Assembly: GCF_000010625.1 (NCBI RefSeq)
Contig: NC_010296.1
Coordinates: 420,001-452,000, forward strand
Direction: 5' to 3'
Origin: Microcystis aeruginosa NIES-843
GTDB lineage: Bacteria; Cyanobacteriota; Cyanobacteriia; Cyanobacteriales; Microcystaceae
Length of the DNA stretch: 32,000 bases
How positions within the stretch are numbered: the stretch's first letter is position 1; each line of letters opens with the position of its first letter. The notes beneath the pieces are model-generated. The model made no database searches, was not told the DNA's origin, and worked only from the letters and a program-made list of their open reading frames with translations. The position numbers and the translations under genes are program-made. Below, piece by piece: positions 1 to 29,293 of this stretch.

Positions 1-106
1 TCTACTAATGACAGTAGCCTAGTTACTCAGGAGCCGGATACGGCGAAAGTCGTAAGTCCGGTTTTGAAGCAGGGGGTGGGAAGGCGACTTCCTGCTCTAC
101 TGTAAC
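1..106 (+). mobile_element. ORF-less group II intron, 3' fragment (domains V-VI), cut by window edge (copy 0)
   Basis: Identical to the last 106 nt of the four full copies. Domain V is GAGCCGGATACGGCGAAAGTCGTAAGTCCGGTTT at 31-64. The fragment ends ...CTACTGTAAC at 106, directly followed by the GGGTTTTACC part of MITE-A. Confidence 0.8.
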
Positions 107-260
107 GGGTTTTACCGATTTTGAGGTGGTCAATTACCTAATTTTCAGGGAAAAAGTACCTGAATTTTCCCCCCGATCACTCCCATGCCAGGCACTTTTT
201 GATTTCAAAAAAGCCTAAAGATATTATCCAACAAGGTTTTTAGATTTATTCAGCAAACCC
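107..260 (+). mobile_element. MITE-A, right part (downstream of intron insertion)
   Basis: Aligns with 7234-7382 and 17790-17945. Ends in the terminal repeat TTATTCAGCAAACCC, the reverse complement of the left end GGGTTTGCTGAA seen in other copies. Confidence 0.75.
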
Positions 261-616
261 TAAATATTTTACACAATTCATACCAGGTAAGCAAGAGGGC
301 TACACCACTACTACCGAATCATTACCCGCCCTCTTTGAACAACTTCTGCTGCTCACCATAAGTGAGAGAAAATCACAAATAGGAGATGCACCCGGTTATG
401 CCTGCTACGAATAAAGAAAAATGGTATTAGTTTTCCTTACGGGGGGGATATAGCTTAAAACGGGTGATTTCTCGGTTATCCAAGCGGTAAACTTTGATTG
501 AGGATCAATTGGGGACGTAAGCGACGGAGTTTGCGTCTCTTTGTTATAATTCAAAGGCTAGGCTATAATAAATCTTCATAAACACCGATAATTTTAGTCA
601 AAGATGTAAAAAAAGG

Positions 617-802
617 GGTTCTTCGTTACTTGGTATGGTTCAATAGGGGGGCATAAATCGACTAAATCCTTATCTGGCAAGAGACTTAATTGATTAGTTC
701 GCTCTAGATCGAAAACAATTGACATAAATCCCCGAATGTCTTTCTATATAAGAGTTTCATTCCTTGTAACCCTGTCCGTTGCATAAGACAAACCGAAGAA
801 CC
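617..802 (+). mobile_element. MITE-B copy 1 (about 187 bp, TIR GGTTCTTCG...CGAAGAACC)
   Basis: Four copies occur in the window (617, 8100, 17139, 30497 inverted). This copy has a perfect 8-bp target site duplication (TSD) AAAAAAGG at 609-616 and 803-810. Confidence 0.85.
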
Positions 803-1613: not shown

Positions 1614-1822
1614 ACGATCAACAAGAGTATAATAGAGTATAATTGTTATAGAATAAGCACTTTACGTTGAAAGAGCGGCGATGAAAGAGACAACCCCAGC
1701 TGCGATGCCTCCCTGCTTTGACCGATGGTGTCGGCGGTTTGACAATTGCTTCAAAAACGAAGCGCAAAAAAACGGCTTCAGACAATATTTAGGGTCTGCT
1801 GAAAAAGTTTTTCCTAGGGGCA

Positions 1823-1843
1823 GGGTGTAGGGTGTGGGGTGTG
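1823..1843 (+). repeat. GGGTGT[GA] heptamer tract (3 units), 5' exon of intron copy 1
   Basis: Direct reading gives GGGTGTA GGGTGTG GGGTGTG, immediately followed by GTGCG. Confidence 0.9.
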
Positions 1844-2628
1844 GTGCGATTCGTTGGCTAGAAACTAGACAGTAAGACGTTTAGAGGATTAGCCGCTTGG
1901 TAAATGTAGTACCTTGATAACTTTATAACCCTACAGGTGCGGGTTAGTAATAACCTTAGTCCTGTCCTCTAGATGCCTAGAGTGACGGCATTTCCTGCTG
2001 CTTTAGACTTGGTACATCTGAGGTAGTGAGCGAGGAAAAAAAAGCGGTATCTGATAGCCTAAATCAGAAACCCGTTGAGCCAGAACCTATGGATAGCCCT
2101 GGGGCGAAGATACGAATTAACCATCGTCAACACCCACGAGCCAAAAGGCTGACAGGCTCGAAACAAAAGTTAACAGAGTTGGGGCTGATAGCTCATACCA
2201 CTATCAGTAAGGCATTCCCGTTACTCTGTTGTGGACAGTATCATCCTAAGGGTTCAACCAATGGTTATAGGGAACGAAGTAACCCTGATTGACTCTGCCC
2301 GTTCGGGGCAGTAGGAAACCATCCGCAAGTCAATAGAGGGAGAGGATGTCCTTAAAAGCCAAGGCTTTGAGTAATATCAAAGATATGCTGACAAAGGACG
2401 GGTAACTAGGAAGTCTAAGCAACAATCAACGGTCATATACGCCCTAAAACCAACAATCTTGTCTGGTGGGGATACAGCCAAGAGGGTTGAATAGACAAGG
2501 AAATAATAATTCCCATTATTATTCTACTAATGACAGTAGCCTAGTTACTCAGGAGCCGGATACGGCGAAAGTCGTAAGTCCGGTTTTGAAGCAGGGGGTG
2601 GGAAGGCGACTTCCTGCTCTACTGTAAC
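1844..2628 (+). mobile_element. ORF-less group II intron copy 1 (785 nt)
   Basis: Has 5' GTGCG and 3' ...CTACTGTAAC. Domain V at 2553-2586 has a 9-bp stem with the AGC triad, an AA bulge, a 5-bp stem and a GAAA loop. Domain VI is a hairpin with a GCGA loop and an unpaired A 8 nt from the end. There is no RT ORF. Confidence 0.8.
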
Positions 2629-2728
2629 GGGTGTGGGGTGTGGGGTGTAGGGTGTAGGGTGTGGGGTGTAGGGTGTGGGGTGTGGGGTGTGGGGAAGTGG
2701 GGGTGTGGGGTGTAGGGTGTGGGGTGTG
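2629..2728 (+). repeat. GGGTGT[GA] heptamer tract (100 bp) between intron copies 1 and 2
   Basis: Direct reading shows about 14 units, including one irregular unit GGGGAAGTGGGG. Confidence 0.9.
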
Positions 2729-3268
2729 GTGCGATTCGTTGGCTAGAAACTAGACAGTAAGACGTTTAGAGGATTAGCCGCTTGGTAAATGTAGTACCTT
2801 GATAACTTTATAACCCTACAGGTGCGGGTTAGTAATAACCTTAGTCCTGTCCTCTAGATGCCTAGAGTGACGGCATTTCCTGCTGCTTTAGACTTGGTAC
2901 ATCTGAGGTAGTGAGCGAGGAAAAAAAAAAGCGGTATCTGATAGCCTAAATCAGAAACCCGTTGAGCCAGAACCTATGGATAGCCCTGGGGCGAAGATAC
3001 GAATTAACCATCGTCAACACCCACGAGCCAAAAGGCTGACAGGCTCGAAACAAAAGTTAACAGAGTTGGGGCTGATAGCTCATACCACTATCAGTAAGGC
3101 ATTCCCGTTACTCTGTTGTGGACAGTATCATCCTAAGGGTTCAACCAATGGTTATAGGGAACGAAGTAACCCTGATTGACTCTGCCCGTTCGGGGCAGTA
3201 GGAAACCATCCGCAAGTCAATAGAGGGAGAGGATGTCCTTAAAAGCCAAGGCTTTGAGTAATATCAAA

Positions 3269-5342
3269 CCCACATTCCGCACCCTAAGTGTCACAACGTC
3301 TCAAAAGAGGAAGGGGCGCGAGTCAAAATACTTATCTAGAGGAGTGAGTTGGCGGCAAGCTGCCGGCAACTAAGCCGAAAATTTCAGAGTTCCCCCGGTC
3401 ATTCTCAATAAACAGTGCTTGTTGAGAATGACTAGGCAATCAGACTTAACATCTAGGGGGAGATGTTCCAGTTGCTCGCTTTGTTTTGTCACCCCTTGAA
3501 GTCAATCCATCTGGTCAAGATAAGAGATAATATTCCTGGCAAGGTTTGGGAAAAAATCTCAAAATGTTGCGCCTCTCATCCGTTAAGTTGCTAATCTTTT
3601 GATTGTCTTGAATACGGACGAGATGAATCCCTTGAAAGCCCTGAAATATCCAGCGTAACGTCGGTCGGTCAGTTAACTTACCCAACGGATTTTTCAGTCC
3701 CGTCTCCTGCTGTTTTAAACTTAAACGAAGTTGTCTTTGACCAATAGTATAAACCAGCAGGCACAAGCCCATGAGCATGGCCATGACCTCGATTCTATGG
3801 GGAGATTTGAGAAAGACACTGTGGGCAAAAAAGCAGGGGTCTTTGAGAAAAGAAAATCCTCTTTCCGGAGCTTGTTGCCCTTTATATTTTTTGAGTATAT
3901 CCTCACTGCTTAATCGTTGTTTCTCCAAATCGTTAGTTGCTAAAACGAATCGTCCTGCTCGTTTCTTTAGCCTCTCAATGGCGGTCAAATTCAACTCTAA
4001 TTCGGCTTGAACTTGATAGCTTTGAGAGGGTAAATCGTCTTTTGATTTGAGTTTTGACCCCTGGGACTCAGGCGGAATGAGATTGACTTTAATCTCCGTT
4101 AACTGATGAGATTTTAAGGAGTCAGATAATCCTTTGGCTATCGCCAACGCCACCGCTCTATTCTCAAATTCTCTTCGGGATAGTTGCCGGATTTTTTCTT
4201 GGGCAGAATTCTTTTCCTGCTCGATTTTTTTCTCTAATTTTTTCAAGTCTGATTCTTGTCTAGCTTGACTTTCAACTAGCAACCATCTTTGTTCTATCCC
4301 CCCATAGTTAGAGATGGTTTCCCGCCAGGAATAACCCGGTATTTCTGAATCGGTTAACTCTTTTTCTGAGATGCTATCAACCAACTCTTGAGCCTCTTTA
4401 ATGCTTAATGGTACTCGAGACAACCAACGCATTTCTTTCATTAGTTTTAAATTCTCTTTGCTATAGAGGGCGCTATCGCCGACTATTAAACTGTCAAAGT
4501 CAACTTGTTTTTTAAATTCTCGGGCGATTTGACCAAAAACCGCTTTGTCCGCTTCATTTCCGTCCCCTACTTTCAGGAATAAAGGTACATCTCCATCCCC
4601 ACTTACGATTAAGTCAATCATAAATTGTTTTAAGTCAGGTCTTCGGTCGCGGGAGTATCCGTAGGTAATTTTTATTGGCTGTTGTCTGGTTTCAATTTCT
4701 TCTCCCACTGCTCCTGATTTCAGGATTTCTACTGTTGGGTATTCCTTGTTATATTCTCCTTCTACTGATAGAGAAGTCGAATCTAAATGGGAGTTCTCGG
4801 TTGCTACACCAAATTTTTTCACGGCCGCTAAACTAATCAGTAGGAAAATGACCGAAACATTAAGTTGATAAAGTTTGTCCATTACTCGACCAATTTTATC
4901 ATCATTCAGGTGTTTTGGTTCGATGCCCTCTCCCAGCAGATGTTCGGTTGCTTTATCTTCAAAAAATTGAGGAAATAAATACAAGGCTCGGGAGACAAAT
5001 CCCAATCCATTCAGGATAATTGCTTTCACGACTTGCCCAGCTGTGACAATTTCTCCTCGCTCAATTGAGACTTGTTCGTTGATAATTTCAACGATTCCTA
5101 TTTCATCGATAATTCCGGCTACTAATCCCAGATGGTCTAGATTTTTGACTTCAATTTCTGTTGATTGATTCATGGTCGAACAGTCCACTCGCCTCAGTTT
5201 TCCAACAATTCCTATTTTTTCATAATTAGGGGTCTCAAGACCCCCCTAGCGGCCACCGAGAAAACCTTCACCAGCTAGGTATTTTTACTCAAGTCTCTGG
5301 CGGGGGACAGCTTATGTGACAGTTGAGGGTGCGGAATGTGGG
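3269..5342 (-). mobile_element. IS1634-like element copy 1 (2074 bp)
   Basis: Termini are CCCACATTCCGCACCCT...AGGGTGCGGAATGTGGG. The 6-bp TSD ATCAAA lies at 3263-3268 and 5343-5348, and the uninterrupted target is visible in the other intron copies. Confidence 0.9.
3515..5188 (-). CDS. IS1634-family (IS4-related) DDE transposase
   Basis: 557-aa ORF with N-terminus ...NLDHLGLVAGIIDEIGIVEIINE, typical of IS1634-type transposases. Three near-identical copies are in the window. The likely true start is the internal MNQSTEIEV. Confidence 0.8.
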   Translation of the reverse strand: MDCSTMNQSTEIEVKNLDHLGLVAGIIDEIGIVEIINEQVSIERGEIVTAGQVVKAIILNGLGFVSRALYLFPQFFEDKATEHLLGEGIEPKHLNDDKIGRVMDKLYQLNVSVIFLLISLAAVKKFGVATENSHLDSTSLSVEGEYNKEYPTVEILKSGAVGEEIETRQQPIKITYGYSRDRRPDLKQFMIDLIVSGDGDVPLFLKVGDGNEADKAVFGQIAREFKKQVDFDSLIVGDSALYSKENLKLMKEMRWLSRVPLSIKEAQELVDSISEKELTDSEIPGYSWRETISNYGGIEQRWLLVESQARQESDLKKLEKKIEQEKNSAQEKIRQLSRREFENRAVALAIAKGLSDSLKSHQLTEIKVNLIPPESQGSKLKSKDDLPSQSYQVQAELELNLTAIERLKKRAGRFVLATNDLEKQRLSSEDILKKYKGQQAPERGFSFLKDPCFFAHSVFLKSPHRIEVMAMLMGLCLLVYTIGQRQLRLSLKQQETGLKNPLGKLTDRPTLRWIFQGFQGIHLVRIQDNQKISNLTDERRNILRFFPKPCQEYYLLS

Positions 5343-5595
5343 ATCAAAGATATGCTGACAAAGGACGGGTAACTAGGAAGTCTAAGCAACAATCAACGGT
5401 CATATACGCCCTAAAACCAACAATCTTGTCTGGTGGGGATACAGCCAAGAGGGTTGAATAGACAAGGAAATAATAATTCCCATTATTATTCTACTAATGA
5501 CAGTAGCCTAGTTACTCAGGAGCCGGATACGGCGAAAGTCGTAAGTCCGGTTTTGAAGCAGGGGGTGGGAAGGCGACTTCCTGCTCTACTGTAAC

Positions 5596-5653
5596 GGGTG
5601 TGGGGTGTGGGGTGTGGGGAAGTGGGGGTGTGGGGTGTAGGGTGTGGGGTGTG
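5596..5653 (+). repeat. GGGTGT[GA] heptamer tract (58 bp) between intron copies 2 and 3
   Basis: Matches the 3' 58 bp of the 2629-2728 tract, including the irregular GGGGAAGTGGGG unit. Confidence 0.85.
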
Positions 5654-6437
5654 GTGCGATTCGTTGGCTAGAAACTAGACAGTAAGACGTTTAGAGGATT
5701 AGCCGCTTGGTAAATGTAGTACCTTGATAACTTTATAACCCTACAGGTGCGGGTTAGTAATAACCTTAGTCCTGTCCTCTAGATGCCTAGAGTGACGGCA
5801 TTTCCTGCTGCTTTAGACTTGGTACATCTGAGGTAGTGAGCGAGGAAAAAAAGCGGTATCTGATAGCCTAAATCAGAAACCCGTTGAGCCAGAACCTATG
5901 GATAGCCCTGGGGCGAAGATACGAATTAACCATCGTCAACACCCACGAGCCAAAAGGCTGACAGGCTCGAAACAAAAGTTAACAGAGTTGGGGCTGATAG
6001 CTCATACCACTATCAGTAAGGCATTCCCGTTACTCTGTTGTGGACAGTATCATCCTAAGGGTTCAACCAATGGTTATAGGGAACGAAGTAACCCTGATTG
6101 ACTCTGCCCGTTCGGGGCAGTAGGAAACCATCCGCAAGTCAATAGAGGGAGAGGATGTCCTTAAAAGCCAAGGCTTTGAGTAATATCAAAGATATGCTGA
6201 CAAAGGACGGGTAACTAGGAAGTCTAAGCAACAATCAACGGTCATATACGCCCTAAAACCAACAATCTTGTCTGGTGGGGATACAGCCAAGAGGGTTGAA
6301 TAGACAAGGAAATAATAATTCCCATTATTATTCTACTAATGACAGTAGCCTAGTTACTCAGGAGCCGGATACGGCGAAAGTCGTAAGTCCGGTTTTGAAG
6401 CAGGGGGTGGGAAGGCGACTTCCTGCTCTACTGTAAC
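5654..6437 (+). mobile_element. ORF-less group II intron copy 3 (784 nt)
   Basis: Same sequence as copy 1 with an A7 tract. Its 3' end abuts the 5' GTGCG of copy 4 with no exon between them. Confidence 0.8.
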
Positions 6438-7222
6438 GTGCGATTCGTTGGCTAGAAACTAGACAGTAAGACGTTTAGAGGATTAGCCGCTTGGTAAATG
6501 TAGTACCTTGATAACTTTATAACCCTACAGGTGCGGGTTAGTAATAACCTTAGTCCTGTCCTCTAGATGCCTAGAGTGACGGCATTTCCTGCTGCTTTAG
6601 ACTTGGTACATCTGAGGTAGTGAGCGAGGAAAAAAAAGCGGTATCTGATAGCCTAAATCAGAAACCCGTTGAGCCAGAACCTATGGATAGCCCTGGGGCG
6701 AAGATACGAATTAACCATCGTCAACACCCACGAGCCAAAAGGCTGACAGGCTCGAAACAAAAGTTAACAGAGTTGGGGCTGATAGCTCATACCACTATCA
6801 GTAAGGCATTCCCGTTACTCTGTTGTGGACAGTATCATCCTAAGGGTTCAACCAATGGTTATAGGGAACGAAGTAACCCTGATTGACTCTGCCCGTTCGG
6901 GGCAGTAGGAAACCATCCGCAAGTCAATAGAGGGAGAGGATGTCCTTAAAAGCCAAGGCTTTGAGTAATATCAAAGATATGCTGACAAAGGACGGGTAAC
7001 TAGGAAGTCTAAGCAACAATCAACGGTCATATACGCCCTAAAACCAACAATCTTGTCTGGTGGGGATACAGCCAAGAGGGTTGAATAGACAAGGAAATAA
7101 TAATTCCCATTATTATTCTACTAATGACAGTAGCCTAGTTACTCAGGAGCCGGATACGGCGAAAGTCGTAAGTCCGGTTTTGAAGCAGGGGGTGGGAAGG
7201 CGACTTCCTGCTCTACTGTAAC
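6438..7222 (+). mobile_element. ORF-less group II intron copy 4 (785 nt)
   Basis: Same sequence as copy 1 with an A8 tract. It is followed by GGGTGTGGGGTTTTACC, the remainder of MITE-A. Confidence 0.8.
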
Positions 7223-8099
7223 GGGTGTGGGGTTTTACCGATTTTGAGGGGGTCAATTACCTAATTTTCAGGGAAAAAGTCCCGGAATTTACCCCTGATC
7301 ACTCCCATATCTGGTACTTTTTGAGGGGAAAAAAGTCCAAAAGTCTTATCCAACAAGGTTTTTAGATTTATTCAGCCAGCCCTATTTAGGAGGATTATTA
7401 GGGGAAAGTGAGAGGAAAAACCTCACTCAAATTGCCAATAATGCCGTCGGAGTAGTTTATAACCGATTACATCACTTTTTGACCGAATCTCCCTGGTCAG
7501 ACCGTCAGGTGAATGAATGTCGGTTGCAAGTGATGAACCAATGCCGCCAGACGCAAATCCCCCGAGGATTTTCCCTGATTGTCGATGACTCAGGACATCG
7601 AAAAAGTGGCAATCTGACCGCCGGAGTTGGCAGGCAGTACCTAGGAGAAATTGGCAAGACAGACAACGGAATAGTCGCCGTCACTACCCATCTCTACGAC
7701 GGCAAAAAAAGTGTCCCCCTAGACAGGGAAATTTATCAACCGGCTAGTTCCTTAGCCGAGGGGAAAGAAGACAAAGAATTTAAGAAGAAACCAGAGATAG
7801 CGATAGATTTAATTGACCGGAGCTTAACCAGAGGCTATCGACCGAAAATCGTCTTAATAGATGCTGGTTATGGCAACAACACAAATTTTCTCAAAGCCCT
7901 GGAAGAAAGAAAGCTAAAATACTTAGGAGGATTGGCAAAAAATCGAAAAGTAATTATTGAAAAAGAAGGGGGTGTGGAAGAAACAATCCAGCTTGAGCAA
8001 CTAGCAAAAAGCCTATCAGAAAAGGATTGGGAGAAAATCACCCTAAATCTAGATAAAGAAAAAACGGTTTGGGTAGCGGTATTCAGAGCGAAAATATCT

Positions 8100-8286
8100 G
8101 GTTCTTCGTTACTTGGTATGGTTCGATAGGGGGGCATAAATCGACTAAATCCTTATCTGGTAAGAGACTTAATTGATTAGTTCGCTCTATATCAAAAACA
8201 ATTGACAAAAATCGCTAAATGCCTTTCTATATAACGGTTCCATCCCTTATAACCCCCGTCCATTGCATAACACAAACCGAAGAGCC
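8100..8286 (+). mobile_element. MITE-B copy 2, inside the copy A transposase gene
   Basis: The 8-bp TSD AAATATCT lies at 8092-8099 and 8287-8294. The uninterrupted site is visible in copy B. Confidence 0.85.
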
Positions 8287-9915: not shown

Positions 9916-11375
9916 CTATACATTTATCCTGTGGCATAAGTTAACTGGGGGATTGCAAAGGCAGTGGGCGAATCGACCTTTAAACACTTTTGTGGAAGCC
10001 TTGGAAGCTTTTCGGACAGCGATGTCTTTCCGTTTCTTTGAGTGGCTGACCGAGAATCGGGATGTGTTTGCCGCTTACAAAGCCAGTTTAGGCTTTGTTT
10101 GGGCTTGAAATTTGTTTAAGTCCCACTATAAAGACCGAAAGAGCCTCCTCGCTTACGTTAAAAAAGTGCTGGACAATTTTGGAGGCGAGTATGTAATTAA
10201 TTTTGCCTAGGTACTTAATACAGTGAGTTCTTTTCTTCTTCGGTGAATTCTAGGTTAATCATGTTTTCAATGAGTGCTTTGCTTCTAATTATGACTCTTA
10301 AACTATATTATTGCGCCAATTCAAAAATGAAACGCATCAACCTCAAGAGTTGACAAAGAAAGGCTCATCAGGTACTGTCTGATCATTAACAAAAACAAAT
10401 CAGACCCAAAATGAGCCACCAACATCTTAACATAGAACAAAGAAACTTGCTCTACCAACTTAGTCAGGAGGGAAATTTATCTCAACGGCAAATGGCCGTC
10501 TGGCTCGGATGTCATCAAAGCACAATATCACGGGAATTAAAAAGGAATCAAAGTTCCCTTGGCTGCTATCTACCTGACACAGCACAAGCTCAAAGCGAGA
10601 CAAGGCGAAAAAATGCCAAACAACCCTTTAAAAATGTCAGCGAGTCAGCCTTAGAGTTGGTCAAAGAAGGATTGAAAGATTATCATAGTCCCGAACAAAT
10701 AGCAGGTCGTCTGAAAAGAGCCAGTCAAGAATCTCTCAGTCACGAAACCATCTATCAAATGATCTATCAGAACTATCACGGATGTGGAGAGTACCAGAAA
10801 TATTTACGCCGGGGGCTTTGTCAAAGAAAGAGTCGAGGCGGAGCAAAAAGTAAGCGTGGAGGGATTCCAGGGCGTGTAGATATCAGCGAGCGACCAGTAA
10901 TTGCTGACCAGAAAACTGAAATCGGTCATTGGGAAAGTGACACAATGATTGGAGGCAATCATCTAGGAGTTCTCGTTACTCATGTAGATAAAGCCTCGAA
11001 ATTTTTAGGAGCAGGATTAGCCAAAAACAAAACCGCATCGGAAATCAATAGAGTCACAGAAAAACTTTTTCAAGAGATTCACCCTGACAAAAGAAAAACC
11101 TTTACTTGTGACAACGGCAAAGAATTTTGTGGACATCAAGAGTTGAGTCAGAAACTAGGAGCAGATTTTTATTTTGCTACTCCTTATCATTCGTGGGAGA
11201 GGGGATTAAACGAGCATACCAAGGGACTGTTAAGACAATTTTTCCCCAAGGGAACGAATTTTAAAATCGTTAAGCCAGAGGAGGTGGAAAGAGCCGTAAA
11301 CTTGATTAACAATCGTCCTCGAAAATGTCTTGACTATCGTACCCCGAATGAGGTATTCTATAAAGGTAGATCAGA

Positions 11376-17135: not shown

Positions 17136-17138
17136 TTG

Positions 17139-17324
17139 GGTTCTTCGTTACTTGGTATGGTTCAATAGGGGGGCATAAATCGACTAAATCCTTATCTGGC
17201 AAGAGACTTAATTGATTAGTTCGCTCTAGATCGAAAACAATTGACATAAATCCCCGAATGTCTTTCTATATAAGAGTTTCATTCCTTGTAACCCTGTCCG
17301 TTGCATAAGACAAACCGAAGAACC
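17139..17324 (+). mobile_element. MITE-B copy 3
   Basis: The 8-bp TSD GTTAATTG lies at 17131-17138 and 17325-17332. The TSD includes the stop codon of the PEP-CTERM gene. Confidence 0.85.
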
Positions 17325-17380: not shown

Positions 17381-17988
17381 TCAAAAAAACTGTAAGTTAG
17401 GATAGGCTAAAATTGCATTATCTTCAGTAGCCACTACTAAATTATGCTGTAAAGCTTGACAGATTAAAAGACGGTCAAAAGGATCTTTATGAAGGAGTGG
17501 TAAATCTTTTAAATGTACTAGGCTTTTTTCATCAATAACTAAACTGTTAATTAAATGCTGTTTTCTTTTTTTGGGAAGATATAGGTCAGGACGCTCAGGA
17601 AAATTTAATTTGCCTAACTGATACTTAATAACGCACTCCCAAACAGAGACTACACTCAAAAAAACTTCGTTATTGCTATTTTTTATCTGACGGCATATTT
17701 TTTCAGACAAGCGCGGATGATCACTAATTAGGGTTTGCTGAAAAAATTTTTCCTGGGGACAGGGTGTGGGGTGTAGGGTGTAGGGTGTAGGGTTTTACCC
17801 ATTTTCAGGGGGTCAATTACCTAATTTTCAGGGAAAAAGTGCCTAAATTTTCCCCCCCCGATCACCCCAATGTCTGGCACTTTTTGATGGGAAAAAAGTC
17901 TAAAAGTCTTACCCAACAAGGTTTTAAGATTTATTGAGCAAACACTAATTAACCAAAGAAAAATGTGTGTATCTAGTAACAATCTCAT
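17381..17988 (-). pseudogene. vapC: PIN-domain VapC toxin gene disrupted by MITE-A
   Basis: Removing 17731-17945 plus one TAATTA restores MRLLLDTHIFLWLISDHPRLSEKICRQ...VWECVIKYQLGKL. The ATG at 17988 overlaps the upstream antitoxin stop as ATGA. Confidence 0.8.
17731..17945 (+). mobile_element. MITE-A, intron-free reference copy (215 bp)
   Basis: Ends are GGGTTTGCTGAA...TTGAGCAAACAC. The 6-bp TSD TAATTA lies at 17725-17730 and 17946-17951. It contains 4 heptamer units at about 17762-17789. Confidence 0.8.
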
Positions 17989-20398: not shown

Positions 20399-22471
20399 CC
20401 CACATTCCGCACCCTAAGTGTCACAACGTCTCAAAAGAGGAAGGGGCGTGAGTCAAAATACTTATCTAGAGGAGTGAGTTGGCGGCAAGCTGCCGGCAAC
20501 TAAGCCGAAAATTTCAGAGTTCCCCCGGTCATTCTCAATAAACAGTGCTTGTTGAGAATGACTAGGCAATCAGACTTAACATCTAGGGGGAGATGTTCCA
20601 GTTGCTCGCTTTGTTTTGTCACCCCTTGAAGTCAATCCATCTGGTCAAGATAAGAGATAATATTCCTGGCAAGGTTTGGGGAAAAATCTCAAAATGTTGC
20701 GCCTCTCATCCGTTAAGTTGCTAATCTTTTGATTGTCTTGAATACGGACGAGATGAATCCCTTGAAAGCCCTGAAATATCCAGCGTAACGTCGGTCGGTC
20801 AGTTAACTTACCCAACGGATTTTTCAGTCCCGTCTCCTGCTGTTTTAAACTTAAACGAAGTTGTCTTTGACCAATAGTATAAACCAGCAGGCACAAGCCC
20901 ATGAGCATGGCCATGACCTCGATTCTATGGGGAGATTTGAGAAAGACACTGTGGGCAAAAAAGCAGGGGTCTTTGAGAAAAGAAAATCCTCTTTCCGGAG
21001 CTTGTTGCCCTTTATATTTTTTGAGTATATCCTCACTGCTTAATCGTTGTTTCTCCAAATCGTTAGTTGCTAAAACGAATCGTCCTGCTCGTTTCTTTAG
21101 CCTCTCAATGGCGGTCAAATTCAACTCTAATTCGGCTTGAACTTGATAGCTTTGAGAGGGTAAATCGTCTTTTGATTTGAGTTTTGACCCCTGGGACTCA
21201 GGCGGAATGAGATTGACTTTAATCTCCGTTAACTGATGAGATTTTAAGGAGTCAGATAATCCTTTGGCTATCGCCAACGCCACCGCTCTATTCTCAAATT
21301 CTCTTCGGGATAGTTGCCGGATTTTTTCTTGGGCAGAATTCTTTTCCTGCTCGATTTTTTTCTCTAATTTTTTCAAGTCTGATTCTTGTCTAGCTTGACT
21401 TTCAACTAGCAACCATCTTTGTTCTATCCCCCCATAGTTAGAGCTTGTTTCCCGCCAGGAATAACCCGGTATTTCTGAATCGGTTAACTCTTTTTCTGAG
21501 ATGCTATCGACTAACTCTTGAGCCTCTTTAATGCTTAATGGTACTCGAGACAACCAACGCATTTCTTTCATTAGTTTTAAATTCTCTTTGCTATAGAGGG
21601 CGCTATCGCCGACTATTAAACTGTCAAAGTCAACTTGTTTTTTAAATTCTCGGGCGATTTGACCAAAAACCGCTTTGTCCGCTTCATTTCCGTCCCATAC
21701 TTTCAGGAATAAAGGTACATCTCCATCCCCACTTACGATTAAGTCAATCATAAATTGTTTTAAGTCAGGTCTTCGGTCGCGGGAGTATCCGTAGGTAATT
21801 TTTATTGGCTGTTGTCTGGTTTCAATTTCTTCTCCCACTGCTCCTGATTTCAGGATTTCTACTGTTGGGTATTCCTTTTTATATTCTCCTTCTACTGATA
21901 GAGAAGTCGAATCTAAATGGGAGTTCTCGGTTGCTACACCAAATTTTTTCACGGCGGCTAAACTGATGAGTAGGAAAATGACCGAAACATTAAGTTGATA
22001 AAGTTTGTCCATTACTCGACCAATTTTATCATCATTCAAGTGCTTGGGTTCGATGCCCTCTCCCAGCAGATGTTCGGTTGCTTTATCTTCAAAAAATTGA
22101 GGAAATAAATACAAGGCTCGGGAGACAAATCCCAATCCATTCAGGATAATTGCTTTCACTACTTGCCCCGCTGTGACAATTTCTCCTCGCTCAATTGAGA
22201 CTTGTTCGTTGATAATTTCAACGATTCCTATTTCATCGATAATTCCGGCTACTAATCCCAGATGGTCTAGATTTTTGACTTCAATTTCTGTTGATTGATT
22301 CATGGTCGAACAGCCCACTGCCTAAGTTTTCCAACAATTCCTATTTTTTCATAATTAGGGGTCTCAAGCTCCCCCTAACGGCCACCGAGAAAACCTTCAC
22401 CAGATAAGTATTTTTACTCAAGTCTCTGGCGGGGGACAGCTTATGTGACAGTTGAGGGTGCGGAATGTGGG
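20399..22471 (-). mobile_element. IS1634-like element copy 2 (2073 bp), no matching TSD
   Basis: Same termini as copy 1, but the flanks TGAGAA and CTCCAA differ. The left flank is a truncated MITE-X-like end and the right flank is a truncated transposase gene. Confidence 0.85.
20645..22318 (-). CDS. IS1634-family DDE transposase (most diverged copy)
   Basis: 557 aa with about 4 substitutions relative to copies 1 and 3, for example KVWDGNEAD versus KVGDGNEAD. Confidence 0.75.
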   Translation of the reverse strand: MGCSTMNQSTEIEVKNLDHLGLVAGIIDEIGIVEIINEQVSIERGEIVTAGQVVKAIILNGLGFVSRALYLFPQFFEDKATEHLLGEGIEPKHLNDDKIGRVMDKLYQLNVSVIFLLISLAAVKKFGVATENSHLDSTSLSVEGEYKKEYPTVEILKSGAVGEEIETRQQPIKITYGYSRDRRPDLKQFMIDLIVSGDGDVPLFLKVWDGNEADKAVFGQIAREFKKQVDFDSLIVGDSALYSKENLKLMKEMRWLSRVPLSIKEAQELVDSISEKELTDSEIPGYSWRETSSNYGGIEQRWLLVESQARQESDLKKLEKKIEQEKNSAQEKIRQLSRREFENRAVALAIAKGLSDSLKSHQLTEIKVNLIPPESQGSKLKSKDDLPSQSYQVQAELELNLTAIERLKKRAGRFVLATNDLEKQRLSSEDILKKYKGQQAPERGFSFLKDPCFFAHSVFLKSPHRIEVMAMLMGLCLLVYTIGQRQLRLSLKQQETGLKNPLGKLTDRPTLRWIFQGFQGIHLVRIQDNQKISNLTDERRNILRFFPKPCQEYYLLS

Positions 22472-22751
22472 CTCCAAATAAATAGAATTGTCTAGAAACG
22501 GGGGGAGGAATAGTAGCCGAAACGACTGATAATAAGCTATCAACTGCTTTTTGATAATTGTCATTTGTTGGACTTGGTAAAAACTCTTGAATCCCTTTAT
22601 ATAAACTGTTATAATCTCGACGAAATAAAGGGTTCAAAGATAATTCGGCAACTGTTGAAGCTTGTCGATTCGACGAGAGGGAATCCAGCAATTCCATGAC
22701 CGTCTCGCGTCTCGAACCAAGGGCGTTATAGAGTTGCCTTCTCCACTTCAA
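22472..22751 (-). pseudogene. N-terminal fragment of another DDE transposase, truncated by IS1634-like copy 2
   Basis: MKWRRQLYNALGSRRETVMELLDSLSS...LSLNPLFRRDYNSLYKGI resembles IS4/IS701-type N-termini. The ORF tail beyond 22472 is IS sequence. Confidence 0.5.
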
Positions 22752-23911: not shown

Positions 23912-24065
23912 CCCACATTCCGCACCCTCAACTGTCACATAAGCTGTCCCCCGCCAGAGACTTGAGTAAAAATACCTAGCTGGTGAAGGTTTTCTCGGTG
24001 GCCGCTAGGGGGGTCTTGAGACCCCTAATTATGAAAAAATAGGAATTGTTGGAAAACTGAGGCGA

Positions 24066-25739
24066 GTGGACTGTTCGACCATGAATCAATCAACAGAAAT
24101 TGAAGTCAAAAATCTAGACCATCTGGGATTAGTAGCCGGAATTATCGATGAAATAGGAATCGTTGAAATTATCAACGAACAAGTCTCAATTGAGCGAGGA
24201 GAAATTGTCACAGCTGGGCAAGTCGTGAAAGCAATTATCCTGAATGGATTGGGATTTGTCTCCCGAGCCTTGTATTTATTTCCTCAATTTTTTGAAGATA
24301 AAGCAACCGAACATCTGCTGGGAGAGGGCATCGAACCAAAACACCTGAATGATGATAAAATTGGTCGAGTAATGGACAAACTTTATCAACTTAATGTTTC
24401 GGTCATTTTCCTACTGATTAGTTTAGCGGCCGTGAAAAAATTTGGTGTAGCAACCGAGAACTCCCATTTAGATTCGACTTCTCTATCAGTAGAAGGAGAA
24501 TATAACAAGGAATACCCAACAGTAGAAATCCTGAAATCAGGAGCAGTGGGAGAAGAAATTGAAACCAGACAACAGCCAATAAAAATTACCTACGGATACT
24601 CCCGCGACCGAAGACCTGACTTAAAACAATTTATGATTGACTTAATCGTAAGTGGGGATGGAGATGTACCTTTATTCCTGAAAGTAGGGGACGGAAATGA
24701 AGCGGACAAAGCGGTTTTTGGTCAAATCGCCCGAGAATTTAAAAAACAAGTTGACTTTGACAGTTTAATAGTCGGCGATAGCGCCCTCTATAGCAAAGAG
24801 AATTTAAAACTAATGAAAGAAATGCGTTGGTTGTCTCGAGTACCATTAAGCATTAAAGAGGCTCAAGAGTTGGTTGATAGCATCTCAGAAAAAGAGTTAA
24901 CCGATTCAGAAATACCGGGTTATTCCTGGCGGGAAACCATCTCTAACTATGGGGGGATAGAACAAAGATGGTTGCTAGTTGAAAGTCAAGCTAGACAAGA
25001 ATCAGACTTGAAAAAATTAGAGAAAAAAATCGAGCAAGAAAAGAATTCTGCCCAAGAAAAAATCCGGCAACTATCCCGAAGAGAATTTGAGAATAGAGCG
25101 GTGGCGTTGGCGATAGCCAAAGGATTATCTGACTCCTTAAAATCTCATCAGTTAACGGAGATTAAAGTCAATCTCATTCCGCCTGAGTCTCAGCAGTCAA
25201 AACTCAAATCAAAAGACGATTTGCCCTCTCAAAGCTATCAAGTTCAAGCCGAATTAGAGTTGAATTTGACCGCCATTGAGAGGCTAAAGAAACGAGCAGG
25301 ACGATTCGTTTTAGCAACTAACGATTTGGAGAAACAACGATTAAGCAGTGAGGATATACTCAAAAAATATAAAGGGCAACAAGCTCCGGAAAGAGGATTT
25401 TCTTTTCTCAAAGACCCCTGCTTTTTTGCCCACAGTGTCTTTCTCAAATCTCCCCATAGAATCGAGGTCATGGCCATGCTCATGGGCTTGTGCCTGCTGG
25501 TTTATACTATTGGTCAAAGACAACTTCGTTTAAGTTTAAAACAGCAGGAGACGGGACTGAAAAATCCGTTGGGTAAGTTAACTGACCGACCGACGTTACG
25601 CTGGATATTTCAGGGCTTTCAAGGGATTCATCTCGTCCGTATTCAAGACAATCAAAAGATTAGCAACTTAACGGATGAGAGGCGCAACATTTTGAGATTT
25701 TTCCCCAAACCTTGCCAGGAATATTATCTCTTATCTTGA
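24066..25739 (+). CDS. IS1634-family DDE transposase
   Basis: 557 aa, one substitution relative to copy 1. Confidence 0.8.
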   Translation: MDCSTMNQSTEIEVKNLDHLGLVAGIIDEIGIVEIINEQVSIERGEIVTAGQVVKAIILNGLGFVSRALYLFPQFFEDKATEHLLGEGIEPKHLNDDKIGRVMDKLYQLNVSVIFLLISLAAVKKFGVATENSHLDSTSLSVEGEYNKEYPTVEILKSGAVGEEIETRQQPIKITYGYSRDRRPDLKQFMIDLIVSGDGDVPLFLKVGDGNEADKAVFGQIAREFKKQVDFDSLIVGDSALYSKENLKLMKEMRWLSRVPLSIKEAQELVDSISEKELTDSEIPGYSWRETISNYGGIEQRWLLVESQARQESDLKKLEKKIEQEKNSAQEKIRQLSRREFENRAVALAIAKGLSDSLKSHQLTEIKVNLIPPESQQSKLKSKDDLPSQSYQVQAELELNLTAIERLKKRAGRFVLATNDLEKQRLSSEDILKKYKGQQAPERGFSFLKDPCFFAHSVFLKSPHRIEVMAMLMGLCLLVYTIGQRQLRLSLKQQETGLKNPLGKLTDRPTLRWIFQGFQGIHLVRIQDNQKISNLTDERRNILRFFPKPCQEYYLLS

Positions 25740-26126
25740 CCAGATGGATTGACTTCAAGGGGTGACAAAACAAAGCGAGCAACTGGAACATCTCCCCCTA
25801 GATGTTAAGTCTGATTGCCTAGTCATTCTCAACAAGCACTGTTTATTGAGAATGACCGGGGGAACTCTGAAATTTTCGGCTTAGTTGCCGGCAGCTTGCC
25901 GCCAACTCACTCCTCTAGATAAGTATTTTGACTCGCGCCCCTTCCTCTTTTGAGACGTTGTGACACTTATACCATTTTTCCTTATTCGTGGCAGGCATCA
26001 TAGTCCCCTCTCCCACCCTGACAGGTGTAGGTTTATTACAAAGAGGTGAGCAGTCACACACTCATGGCGAGAAAATCAAGCTAGAGATTTAGAGGAGCAT
26101 AGCGAAAGACAATGCTAAACAACAAA

Positions 26127-27146: not shown

Positions 27147-29293
27147 ATGGCCCAACTGGACAACATCGAAGCGATCGAAAAAAAGCTATGGAAAGCGGCC
27201 GATACTCTGCGCGCTAATTCTAACTATGCCAGTAACGAGTATTTTCTGCCCGTTATGGGCTTGATTTTCCTTCGTCATGCCTACAGTCGTTTTCTCAAGG
27301 TTAAGAGGGAGGTAGAGGCGGATTTACCGAAGCGAGGGGGTAAAACACGCTCCTTAACCAAAGAAGATTTCTTGTGCAAAGGAGCGATCTATCTCCAAGA
27401 AAAAGCTCAGTTCGATTTTCTGGTGGCGCTCCCCGATAGCGTCAATCGATCGACCTCCTTAATGGAAGCAATGCTATCGATCGAGGGGGATTATCCACCT
27501 TTAGGGGGTATTTTACCGAAAACGGAATACCAAGAACTAGATAACGTGGTATTAGGGAATTTACTACGGATTTTAAACCCAGAAGAGTTAAAAAAAGCCG
27601 ATGGGGATATTTTCGGGCGAATTTATGAATATTTCCTAACACAATTCGCTAATCTCAAAGCTCACGATAACGGAGAGTTTTTTACTCCCGTTTCTCTAGT
27701 ATCTTTGATCGCCAATGTTTTAGAACCCGATCACGGATTGGTTTTCGATCCTGCCTGTGGTTCGGGGGGAATGTTTGTCCAGAGCGCACATTTCGTTGAG
27801 AGACAGCGCATCAATCCCCAGATGTTAACTTTTAAAGGGTTAGAGAAGAATCCGACCACAATTCGTTTAGCCAAGATGAATCTCGCGGTTCACGGTTTAG
27901 AAGGGGATATCCAAAAAGCGATCACCTACTACGAGGATCCGCTGGCATTGGCCGGGAAAGTGGATTATGTGATGGCCAATCCTCCCTTCAACGTGGACGA
28001 GGTGGATAAGCTTAGACGCATTTAAGTTTCCTACTCGTATCCCTATCTACAAGGCGTTCCAGGATATTAAAGTGCAATGTAAGTGCGTCTAAGCTTAGTA
28101 AGGTAGATGGTGATGAGCGCTTACCCTTCGGATTGCCGGGGGTCAATAAAAGTAACAAAGTTTCCAACGGTAACTATCTATGGATCAGTTACTTCTACAG
28201 CTATCTCAATGATCGAGGAAAAGCCGGTTTTGTCATGTCTTCCCAAGCTTCCAGCGCCGGGAGAGACGAAGGCAAGGTAAGACAGAAGTTAATCGAGACG
28301 GGAACGGTGGACATAATGATCGCGATCCGCTCTAACTTTTTCTATACCCGCTCCGTACCCTGCGAGTTGTGGTTTCTCAATCGAGGGAAACCCGCCGAGC
28401 TTCAAGATAAGATATTAATGATCGATGCCCGCAATATTTACCGGAAAGTAAACCGGACGATCAACGATTTTAGCCCAGAGCAGTTACAGAATATTCTCTC
28501 GATTGTCTGGCTCTATCGGAGTGAATCGAAGCGTTTTATCGATTTGGTTGTCGGTTATTGCCAGAGTATCGATCGAGAGTATCAGGGATCGATCGCTCTT
28601 TTACAAAACTATTGCGAGCATCTGGACAAGTTAACCGAGGCCCTAGAGAAATTTTATAATCTCATCGATGAAAAAGACGGAACATGGTTAGAACTCCGAA
28701 CAGCATCTGAGCTTTTCAAAGATGACATCGATAAATACGCCGGTTTCGCTCCGATTTCCTATAACGCTGATGATTTAGAGACTTTACACGAGGCTGTCCG
28801 CTGTTATCACGAATACGGCGAATTTAGCCGGGATCTGGGCAAACAGGCGGATCTGGTGAATAAGTTATTAGGTCGAGCGATCGAGCGTGCCGAGAAGGAT
28901 CTGGGGGCAAGAGATAGTAAACTGTGGTGGAATTCCCGCGAACTCAACACCTTACGCAAAGAAGCCGATACAAGCCGTCAGAATGCGATCGAACAGCTTA
29001 AATCGCTTCGTGGTTTCTACCGTCACGCTCACTGGCTATTAGAAAGGTTCCCCGATGCCAAGCTGCGGGATGTGGAAGGGTTGGTTAAAGTGGTCGATCG
29101 CGAGGAGTTACAGGCGAATGATTGGAGTTTAACCCCCGGACGCTATGTAGGCGTTTCCCCAGAGGAGGAAGATGAGGATTTCGATTTCGAGGAAACGTTA
29201 CGCGAAATTCATCTGGAGTTAAATGATCTCAACTCCGAGGCGATTCGTTTAGCTGATGAAATTGCGAAGAATTTTGAAGGGTTAGGAATTTAA
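27147..29293 (+). pseudogene. hsdM: Type I restriction-modification methyltransferase subunit HsdM, frameshifted by an 87-bp MITE
   Basis: Has an HsdM N-terminal domain (LWKAADTLR), motif I DPACGSGGMF and motif IV NPPF. ORFs 27147-28025 and 28133-29293 join in frame (NVDEVDSKVDGDERLPFGLPG) when 28009-28095 plus a TA are removed. Confidence 0.85.
28009..28095. mobile_element. MITE-G (87 bp hairpin-type MITE, TA duplication)
   Basis: The 14-bp perfect inverted repeats TAAGCTTAGACGCA / TGCGTCTAAGCTTA include the flanking TA. The net insertion of 89 bp explains the frame change between the two hsdM ORFs. Confidence 0.75.

Follow-up and report, generated by a model that had tools for sequence, protein, structure and literature searches.

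How two complete copies of a group II intron can come to lie head to tail, with no exon sequence between them, is the question raised by a 32,000-nucleotide (nt) stretch of the genome of Microcystis aeruginosa NIES-843 (contig NC_010296.1, positions 420,001 to 452,000), referred to below as the window. It carries an array of copies of a 785-nt group II intron that lacks an open reading frame (ORF), here numbered 1 to 4 in their order on the plus strand. Copies 3 and 4 abut at 6437|6438, where the direct sequence reading is c at 6437 and g at 6438. The probable answer is that copy 3 retrohomed into a site that was already occupied by copy 4, which would leave the two introns with an obligatory order of splicing.

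The canonical 3' end of copy 3 (...CUACUGUAAC) adjoins G1 of copy 4 (GUGCGA...). The junction sequence is ...tcctgctctactgtaac|gtgcgattcgttgg..., or, in a wider reading, ...GGCGACTTCCTGCTCTACTGTAAC|GTGCGATTCGTTGGCTAG..., and the 20-mer CTACTGTAACGTGCGATTCG that spans it occurs once in the window, versus 0 occurrences expected from 100 shuffles. Searches with the Rfam model RF00029, which covers domains V and VI, give five plus-strand matches, ending at 106, 2628, 5595, 6437, and 7222, each with a score of 55 bits (gathering score, 40); the fourth of these ends exactly at the junction. The intron termini read GTGCGATTCG at the 5' end and CTACTGTAAC at the 3' end. Depending on the context, the base before the start GTGCGA is A, G, or C, which fixes the 5' boundary of the intron; therefore, the junction fixes the 3' end at C. 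Thus, both the exon-less junction reported in an initial annotation of this DNA, made from the sequence alone, and its use to define the ends of the element are borne out. No bases have been added or lost at the boundary between the intron 3' end and G1, intact intron-binding sites IBS1 and IBS2 precede copy 3, and the native 3' exon follows copy 4. No ORF spans the junction. Two complete elements joined so precisely at their functional ends are not the product of chance.

The element itself is an ORF-less, IIB-like group II intron of Microcystis. Group II introns are typically recognized by their domains V and VI, with a catalytic AGC, a GNRA loop, and a bulged branch A located 7 to 8 nt from the 3' end, and by the terminal sequences GUGYG...AY. 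In this intron, domain V consists of 34 nt, with an AGC and a GAAA loop, the branch A bulges out of domain VI 8 nt before the 3' end and is followed by CUGUAAC, and the ends, GUGCG...AAC, are canonical. The 785-nt RNA is predicted to fold far more stably than shuffled sequences (z = -5.1 for the single-sequence minimum free energy). The predicted minimum-free-energy structure, which is based on a single sequence because the identical copies give no covariation, includes domain I(i) at intron positions 7-12/430-435, domain II at 439-497, domain III at 505-556, and domain IV at 557-707, followed by domains V and VI. The Rfam model of domains I to IV (RF01999) shows a partial, subthreshold match (26.7 bits versus 36). 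The intron contains no reverse transcriptase (RT) ORF; its ORFs are all short (88, 53, and 31 to 35 amino acids), none of them RT-like, and a database look-up of the 53-residue product gave nothing. Since the intron does not encode an RT, its mobility must rely on an RT acting in trans.

Once an insertion sequence (IS) and one repeat of its 6-bp target duplication are taken out of copy 2, copies 1 to 4 differ only in how long one A run is (8, 10, 7, and 8 residues, respectively). This polymorphic run is located directly 3' of GUGAGCGAGG, at intron positions 193-200 (window positions 2036-2043, 2921-2930, 5846-5852, and 6630-6637), and comprises 7 or 8 residues in metagenome copies of the intron. 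Eleven full copies, drawn from the window and independent contigs of metagenomes and genomes, are 0 to 2 substitutions apart, indicating a very recent spread of this intron family. Among the GTDB representative genomes, the 5' end of the intron is restricted to Microcystis. The window is a mosaic of 98 to 100% matches to the genome of Microcystis viridis NIES-102, and one of its encoded proteins is identical to a NIES-102 protein. This microsatellite-homing intron family of Microcystis has not been described before.

The target rules of the intron were derived from 22 distinct 30-nt 5' flanks, including the one at the junction between copies 3 and 4, and 8 distinct 3' flanks. The 21 nonjunction 5' flanks come from at least 3 genomes and several metagenomes. 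The 5' and 3' flanks were analyzed separately, because short-read metagenome contigs may be chimeric across identical repeats. All 21 nonjunction 5' flanks contain GGGTGT at positions -14 to -9, 19 of them contain GGTGT at -6 to -2, and position -1 is occupied by G (12 flanks) or A (9 flanks); the consensus of these flanks is (T/C)A GGGTGT R GGGTGT R|. Two off-consensus sites (L007 and L011) still carry an intact IBS2. Downstream, the +1 base is G in 8/8 distinct 3' flanks, with the intron's own G1 counted among them, just as the initial annotation had noted for the two contexts available to it; positions +2 and +3 read GG in every flank but the one at the junction, which is GTG from +1. Outside the assigned pairings, A is found at -15 in 18 of the 21 sites and T or C at -16 in all of them (window, L007 to L032). 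By analogy with A-14/A-15 in the Thermosynechococcus elongatus introns TeI3c and TeI4c, A-15 may be a position recognized by protein.

Two segments of the predicted fold are complementary to this target. ACACCC (intron positions 287-292) is the sole all-Watson-Crick complement of GGGUGU in the intron. CAUACC (351-356) is complementary to GGUGUG and lies in a 9-nt terminal loop that is ~100% unpaired in the predicted ensemble; the internal loop of the same hairpin, GGCAU, could form an α-α' pairing with the complementary loop AUGCC at 130-134. On this model, exon-binding site 1 (EBS1) is assigned to CAUACC, which would pair with positions -6 to -1, and its arrangement with α' is the classical one for subdomain Id3. 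EBS2 is assigned to ACACC at 287-291, in a multibranched loop upstream of the EBS1 hairpin, with predicted pairing to -13 to -9, and EBS2a is assigned to C285, two positions upstream of EBS2, as the putative partner of G-14. According to the published rule for IIB1 and IIB2 introns, IBS1 occupies -6 to -1 and IBS2 occupies -13 to -9, EBS2a is located 2 nt upstream of EBS2 and pairs with -14, and -8/-7 stay unpaired (PMC8643678). The predicted layout agrees with this rule, apart from the mismatch of C351 with A-1 at 9 of the 21 sites; the intron copies at two of the A-1 sites (L020 and L021) show no compensating change. Thus, the ACACCC motif at 2130-2135, put forward earlier as a candidate for pairing with the GGGTGTG exon, appears to be a real exon-binding site, but it is EBS2 (with EBS2a at C2128) and not EBS1, which corresponds to CAUACC at 2194-2199. 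EBS1 and EBS2 could be placed in the folded intron, whereas EBS3, expected as a base of the coordination loop that pairs with +1, could not be assigned from one sequence.

Other placements were considered and rejected. A shifted phase (UGCGA...AACG), which would let CAACACCC serve as EBS1, produces noncanonical ends and conflicts with the RF00029 alignment. UACAUCU (170-176) could accommodate both A and G at -1, yet it is half base-paired and lies in the RF01999-matched hairpin taken as subdomain Ic, and UACGCCC (595-601) falls into predicted domain IV. Telomerase-like templating of the heptamers by CAACACCCAC was also dismissed, as the tandem complement requires CCCC.

Applied to copies 3 and 4, these rules give very different results for the two upstream sequences. 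The sequence upstream of copy 3, TA GGGTGT G GGGTGT G, fits the consensus of the 21 other flanks perfectly. In front of copy 4 lies the tail of copy 3 (...UGCUCUACUGUAAC), whose calculated pairing with EBS1 and EBS2 amounts to -0.5 and +0.9 kcal/mol, versus -5.9 and -8.5 kcal/mol for genuine exons. As this tail cannot pair with EBS1 or EBS2, copy 4 could not have homed behind copy 3, and that order of insertion was rejected. Because the tail is equally unusable as a 5' exon, copy 4 would be spliced only after the removal of copy 3.

Every group II intron starts with G. Therefore, an occupied site still offers all the bases that are paired by the intron RNA, and in this family occupied sites would remain targets because the normal +1 base equals the intron G1. 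The pair could then have arisen as follows. The ORF-less intron would spread in Microcystis with the help of an RT presumably encoded elsewhere in the genome, retrohoming into heptamer microsatellites with the consensus (T/C)A-GGGTGT-R-GGGTGT-R|G, whose top strand its RNA would read, with a single EBS3 base pairing with G+1. A second ribonucleoprotein would have reverse-spliced between ...GGGTGTG and G1 of the resident copy 4, and copying of the inserted RNA into DNA would have produced copy 3 and the boundary ...CUGUAAC|GUGCGA... with no exon in between. In the transcript, copy 3 would splice first, joining GGGUGUG to the GUGCGA of copy 4 and so restoring its 5' exon, and copy 4 would follow only after copy 3. 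This agrees with the initial annotation, which had proposed that a second intron homed into the same 5' exon immediately before a resident one and that its splicing would leave the downstream copy with its proper exon. The first proposal gains from the perfect target of copy 3, the G1 of copy 4 in the +1 position, and the unpairable sequence upstream of copy 4, all of them seen at a single junction; the second follows from the predicted pairing of the rejoined exon. The arrangement is also, as suggested there, side by side and not that of a nested twintron, since copies 3 and 4 are both complete and uninterrupted and the insertion point is their boundary.

The array is located in a (GGGTGTR)n tract inside a miniature inverted-repeat transposable element (MITE) of ~213 bp, which itself lies within a DDE_5 transposase gene; there is no host gene in the usual sense (Table 1). 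The MITE has the terminal inverted repeats GGGTYTGCTG.../...CAGCRRRCCC and an AT-rich target duplication of 6 to 8 bp. Joining 1681-1793 to 7391-8129 (that is, deleting 1794-7390) restores a single ORF with a Pfam DDE_5 match at 3.4e-43. M. viridis NIES-102, too, has a MITE of this type within a DDE_5 transposase gene, and this paralogous combination of IS and MITE lacks the intron (L033, positions 10113-10325); its tract reads GGGTGTA GGGTGTG GGGTGTG GGGTGTG GGGTTTTACC. The 21 nt to the left of copy 1 and the 7 nt to the right of copy 4 add up to exactly this empty tract, and the 3' flank of copy 4, GGGTGTG GGGTTTTACC, is the same as in the empty paralogue. Because the flanks rebuild the empty NIES-102 tract, the whole array occupies one former site, between units 3 and 4. 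Tracts of (GGGTGTR)n with n of 4 or more fit a G3-N4 G-quadruplex motif on the strand that receives the reverse splicing (e.g., 2629-2728).

Homing into this site was not the only process that shaped the array. The 58-nt spacer before copy 3 matches the final 58 nt before copy 2 base for base, including the rare motif GGGAAGTGGGGGTGTG, which is missing from the intron-free paralogous MITE tract (L033) and is common in the 5' flanks of the intron at other loci. This combination of a repeated spacer with a motif absent from the ancestral tract and typical of other loci suggests that duplication of a unit consisting of spacer and intron, and/or gene conversion from other loci, contributed to the array. 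The IS in copy 2 was inserted after that duplication. It is 2,074 bp long (3269-5342), is flanked by the 6-bp target duplication ATCAAA, and encodes, on the minus strand, a 557-amino-acid transposase (Pfam domains DUF4277 and DDE_Tnp_1). The window contains three copies of this 2.07-kb IS, at 3269-5342 (minus strand), ~20399-22472 (minus strand), and ~23940-26013 (plus strand).

Table 1. Features of the intron array, its MITE, and related elements in the window
Feature	Position	Strand	Details
Copy 0, 3' end of another intron copy truncated at the window start	1..106	+	RF00029 match at 29-106; identical to the last 106 nt of copies 1 and 4
MITE right arm	107-266		GGGTTTTACC follows directly after copy 0
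5' part of DDE_5 (IS701-like) transposase gene, split by MITE and intron array	1681..1793	+	Target-site duplication TATTTA(GG) at 1786-1793 and 7383-7390
MITE left arm	1794..1843	+	Ends with GGGTGTA GGGTGTG GGGTGTG, the 5' exon of copy 1
Intron copy 1 (785 nt)	1844..2628	+	EBS2a C2128, EBS2 2130-2134, EBS1 2194-2199 (predicted)
Heptamer spacer, 100 nt	2629..2728	+	Last 58 nt identical to 5596-5653
Intron copy 2, with IS in predicted domain III	2729..5595	+	Removal of IS and one duplication copy gives the exact intron
Heptamer spacer, 58 nt, 5' exon of copy 3	5596..5653	+	IBS2a G5640, IBS2 5641-5645, IBS1 5648-5653 (predicted); A-15 at 5639
Intron copy 3 (784 nt, A run of 7), probable newcomer	5654..6437	+	EBS2a C5937, EBS2 5939-5943, EBS1 6003-6008 (predicted)
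Direct junction	6437..6438	+	Last base of copy 3 (C) against G1 of copy 4; G6438 is the +1 (putative IBS3) base for copy 3
Intron copy 4 (785 nt, A run of 8), probable resident at the ancestral unit 3|unit 4 site of the MITE tract	6438..7222	+	
Last heptamer, GGGTGTG, and MITE right arm	7223..7382	+	
Intron-free copy of the same MITE family	17731..17943	+	Tract GGGTGTG GGGTGTA GGGTGTA GGGTGTA GGGTTTTACC

Several observations weigh against homing of copy 3 into an occupied site. There is a single such junction, in one assembly, and it rests on assembled sequence rather than on raw reads. The cognate RT and the EBS3 base that the model calls for are both putative. The C·A mismatch with EBS1 at the A-1 sites means that the register of EBS1 is not fully secure. 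All nonjunction 3' flanks begin with GGG, so that +2 and +3 might contribute to recognition; the earlier view that recognition depends almost wholly on the upstream exon is thus plausible but unproven. The spacers next to the pair show that recombination and duplication also remodeled the array. Finally, searches for other exon-less junctions, suggested in the initial annotation, found none: junctions with spacers of 0 to 30 nt gave 0 matches in GTDB representative genomes and none in JGI metagenome contigs, apart from 2 chance matches in unrelated sequence. Both negatives are weak, since short-read assemblies break inside the intron repeat.

The same breakage is seen elsewhere in the data. 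Some contigs stop ~100 nt into the intron, and the orthologous locus is represented in other samples only by contigs broken at the intron. A search of IMG/VR with the intron 3' end gave 0 matches. One 3' flank, GGGAGATTAAAT..., located next to a response regulator gene, is combined with four different 5' flanks, depending on the metagenome assembly (L024, L025, L026, and L032), which reflects either real polymorphism of the tract or array or chimeric assembly across the identical 785-nt intron.

Among the alternatives, the pair might have been made as a dimer in one RT-dependent event. The RT, on reaching the 5' end of an intron RNA, could have switched to the 3' end of a second one, or it could have copied a circular intron RNA; alternatively, a free intron could have reverse-spliced at the 5' splice junction of a precursor RNA, followed by recombination of the complementary DNA. 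Such routes have precedents: group II RTs efficiently switch templates end to end (PMC3683930), a group II intron of Trichodesmium is released as a true circle (PMC4649490), and Stabell et al. (2007) named head-to-tail tandems formed via template switching or RNA-level reverse splicing as possible (PMC1865049). The junction, however, shows no nontemplated extra bases, and integration of a dimeric product would require further, unobserved steps. The A runs of 7 and 8 residues in the two copies are also easier to explain by two events, although such a run is hypermutable. Altogether, a one-step origin is unlikely; its RNA-level variant follows the same target logic as homing into the occupied site and is hard to distinguish from it.

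We also regard as improbable a scenario in which a heptamer spacer once separated copies 3 and 4 and was later lost by precise deletion, through slippage or illegitimate recombination. Heptamer tracts do vary in length, being 100 and 58 nt here and different again between loci and strains, and the duplicated 58-nt spacer shows that the array bears other signs of recombination. However, slippage or unequal exchange between heptamers stops at one unit (7 nt), and removal of that last unit would require two breaks placed precisely at the ends of the introns, where the microhomology amounts to 1 nt (G). Furthermore, no intermediate spacers of 7 to 28 nt were found in GTDB representatives or JGI metagenome contigs. 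Unequal crossing-over between heptamers or introns was rejected as a source of a zero-length spacer, as it either reproduces existing junctions or leaves at least 7 nt.

It is very improbable that the junction is an assembly or consensus artifact among 100%-identical 785-nt repeats. In favor of an artifact, assembly of such tandem repeats is difficult, the only difference between the copies is in homopolymer length, a typical class of long-read error, and the junction is absent from every other data set searched. However, collapse or expansion of repeats reuses existing junctions and makes no new 20-mer, a consensus would not usually lose an entire G/T-rich spacer of at least 7 nt, and the A7 variant recurs in a separately assembled JGI metagenome contig (L032), so that the homopolymer differences are at least partly real.

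A dispersed repeat family of 187 nt, probably a MITE, is present in three copies in the window (616-802, 8099-8285, and 17138-17324). A 182-nt element at 863-1044, with the terminal inverted repeat GGGAGCATCTCAC, has two copies at 100% identity in NIES-102 and is probably also a MITE. A type I restriction-modification methylase (HsdM_N and N6_Mtase domains) is apparently split into two ORFs (27147-28025 and 28133-29293), ~100 nt apart, which suggests that its gene is disrupted or frameshifted.

If copy 3 did home into the occupied site, the pair would show occupied-site homing in a wild bacterial genome, beyond over-expression assays. It would also suggest a general rule: as all group II introns have G as their first base, any of them whose +1 partner accepts G could be stacked head to tail. 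The local multicopy arrays, as well as the assembly breaks, in Microcystis would be explained by an ORF-less intron family with its targets in a microsatellite of another mobile element. The array might serve as a natural substrate for the study of obligately ordered splicing and might have a practical bearing on multicopy targetron integration and on the annotation of repeat-rich cyanobacterial genomes. As a tentative proposal, this could be the first natural chromosomal side-by-side group II "twintron," from a lineage specialized on MITE-borne G-rich heptanucleotide microsatellites, in which a 4-unit tract could have grown into a kilobase-scale head-to-tail ribozyme array that would have to be spliced in 5'-to-3' order; a site-specific retroelement would thereby have turned into a tandem array by a natural route. 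A nonexhaustive literature search brought up no natural group II pair arranged head to tail; the sole example of such behavior that it found was an E. coli assay published in 2025.

The group II twintrons known so far from bacteria are nested (PMC2882425, PMC4649490, and PMC4424553). Like the Microcystis pair, nested group II twintrons, such as those in Euglena plastids, T. elongatus (TeI3 in TeI4), Trichodesmium (Tery_4732), and Methanosarcina, involve homing into an occupied locus and impose an order of splicing, and they create perpetual homing sites in nonessential DNA (PMC2882425, PMC4649490, and PMC4424553). However, in those twintrons the inner intron interrupts the outer one, whereas in Microcystis neither intron is interrupted, the insertion is at the exon/intron boundary, and the upstream copy would be spliced first.

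Side-by-side twintrons of group I introns are found in fungal mitochondria, namely, in Hypomyces aurantius cox3 and in Ophiostoma ips (cob I4 and cox3 I2), and resemble the Microcystis pair in having adjoining modules with no exon between them (PMC8393795). A "ratchet," with the upstream module splicing first, has been proposed for these elements (PMC8393795). They differ in their homing endonucleases, in their location in protein-coding mitochondrial genes, and in the mechanism of origin and the splicing chemistry.

The TeI3 family of T. elongatus offers another parallel, as it consists of proliferating ORF-less cyanobacterial group II introns that are mobilized in trans. The TeI3c assay selected A residues in the distal 5' exon (PMC2882425), which can be compared with A-15 in Microcystis. 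In contrast to TeI3, the Microcystis intron targets a tandem heptanucleotide repeat in a MITE, which leads to multicopy arrays at one locus.

The closest known system is EcKTE56.groEL, a IIB1 intron of E. coli, for which tandems made up 22.4% of the integrants with the delta-ORF intron and 4.2% of those with the wild type (Mob DNA 2025;16:41; PMC12584367) and were present in ~3% of intron-containing nanopore reads (PMC12584367). Its authors describe pairing of EBS3(U) with IBS3(G), the latter being the first G of the resident copy, which results in the junction CCGAC|GTGCG (PMC12584367). As in the proposed origin of the Microcystis pair, the second copy is placed between the 5' exon and the resident G1, with the unchanged 5' exon read by EBS1 and EBS2 and with G1 acting as IBS3. 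The E. coli tandems differ in that they come from laboratory over-expression, are seen in nanopore reads of an assay culture, involve a noncanonical EBS3(U)-G wobble, and arise at the groEL stop codon site. The Microcystis pair, for its part, is natural and cyanobacterial, lies in noncoding heptamer repeats, depends on an RT in trans, and has G as its native +1 base, so that an occupied site mimics an empty one even better than in E. coli. The pair in NIES-843 is probably not a new kind of arrangement but a natural instance of the mechanism already known from the 2025 E. coli work.

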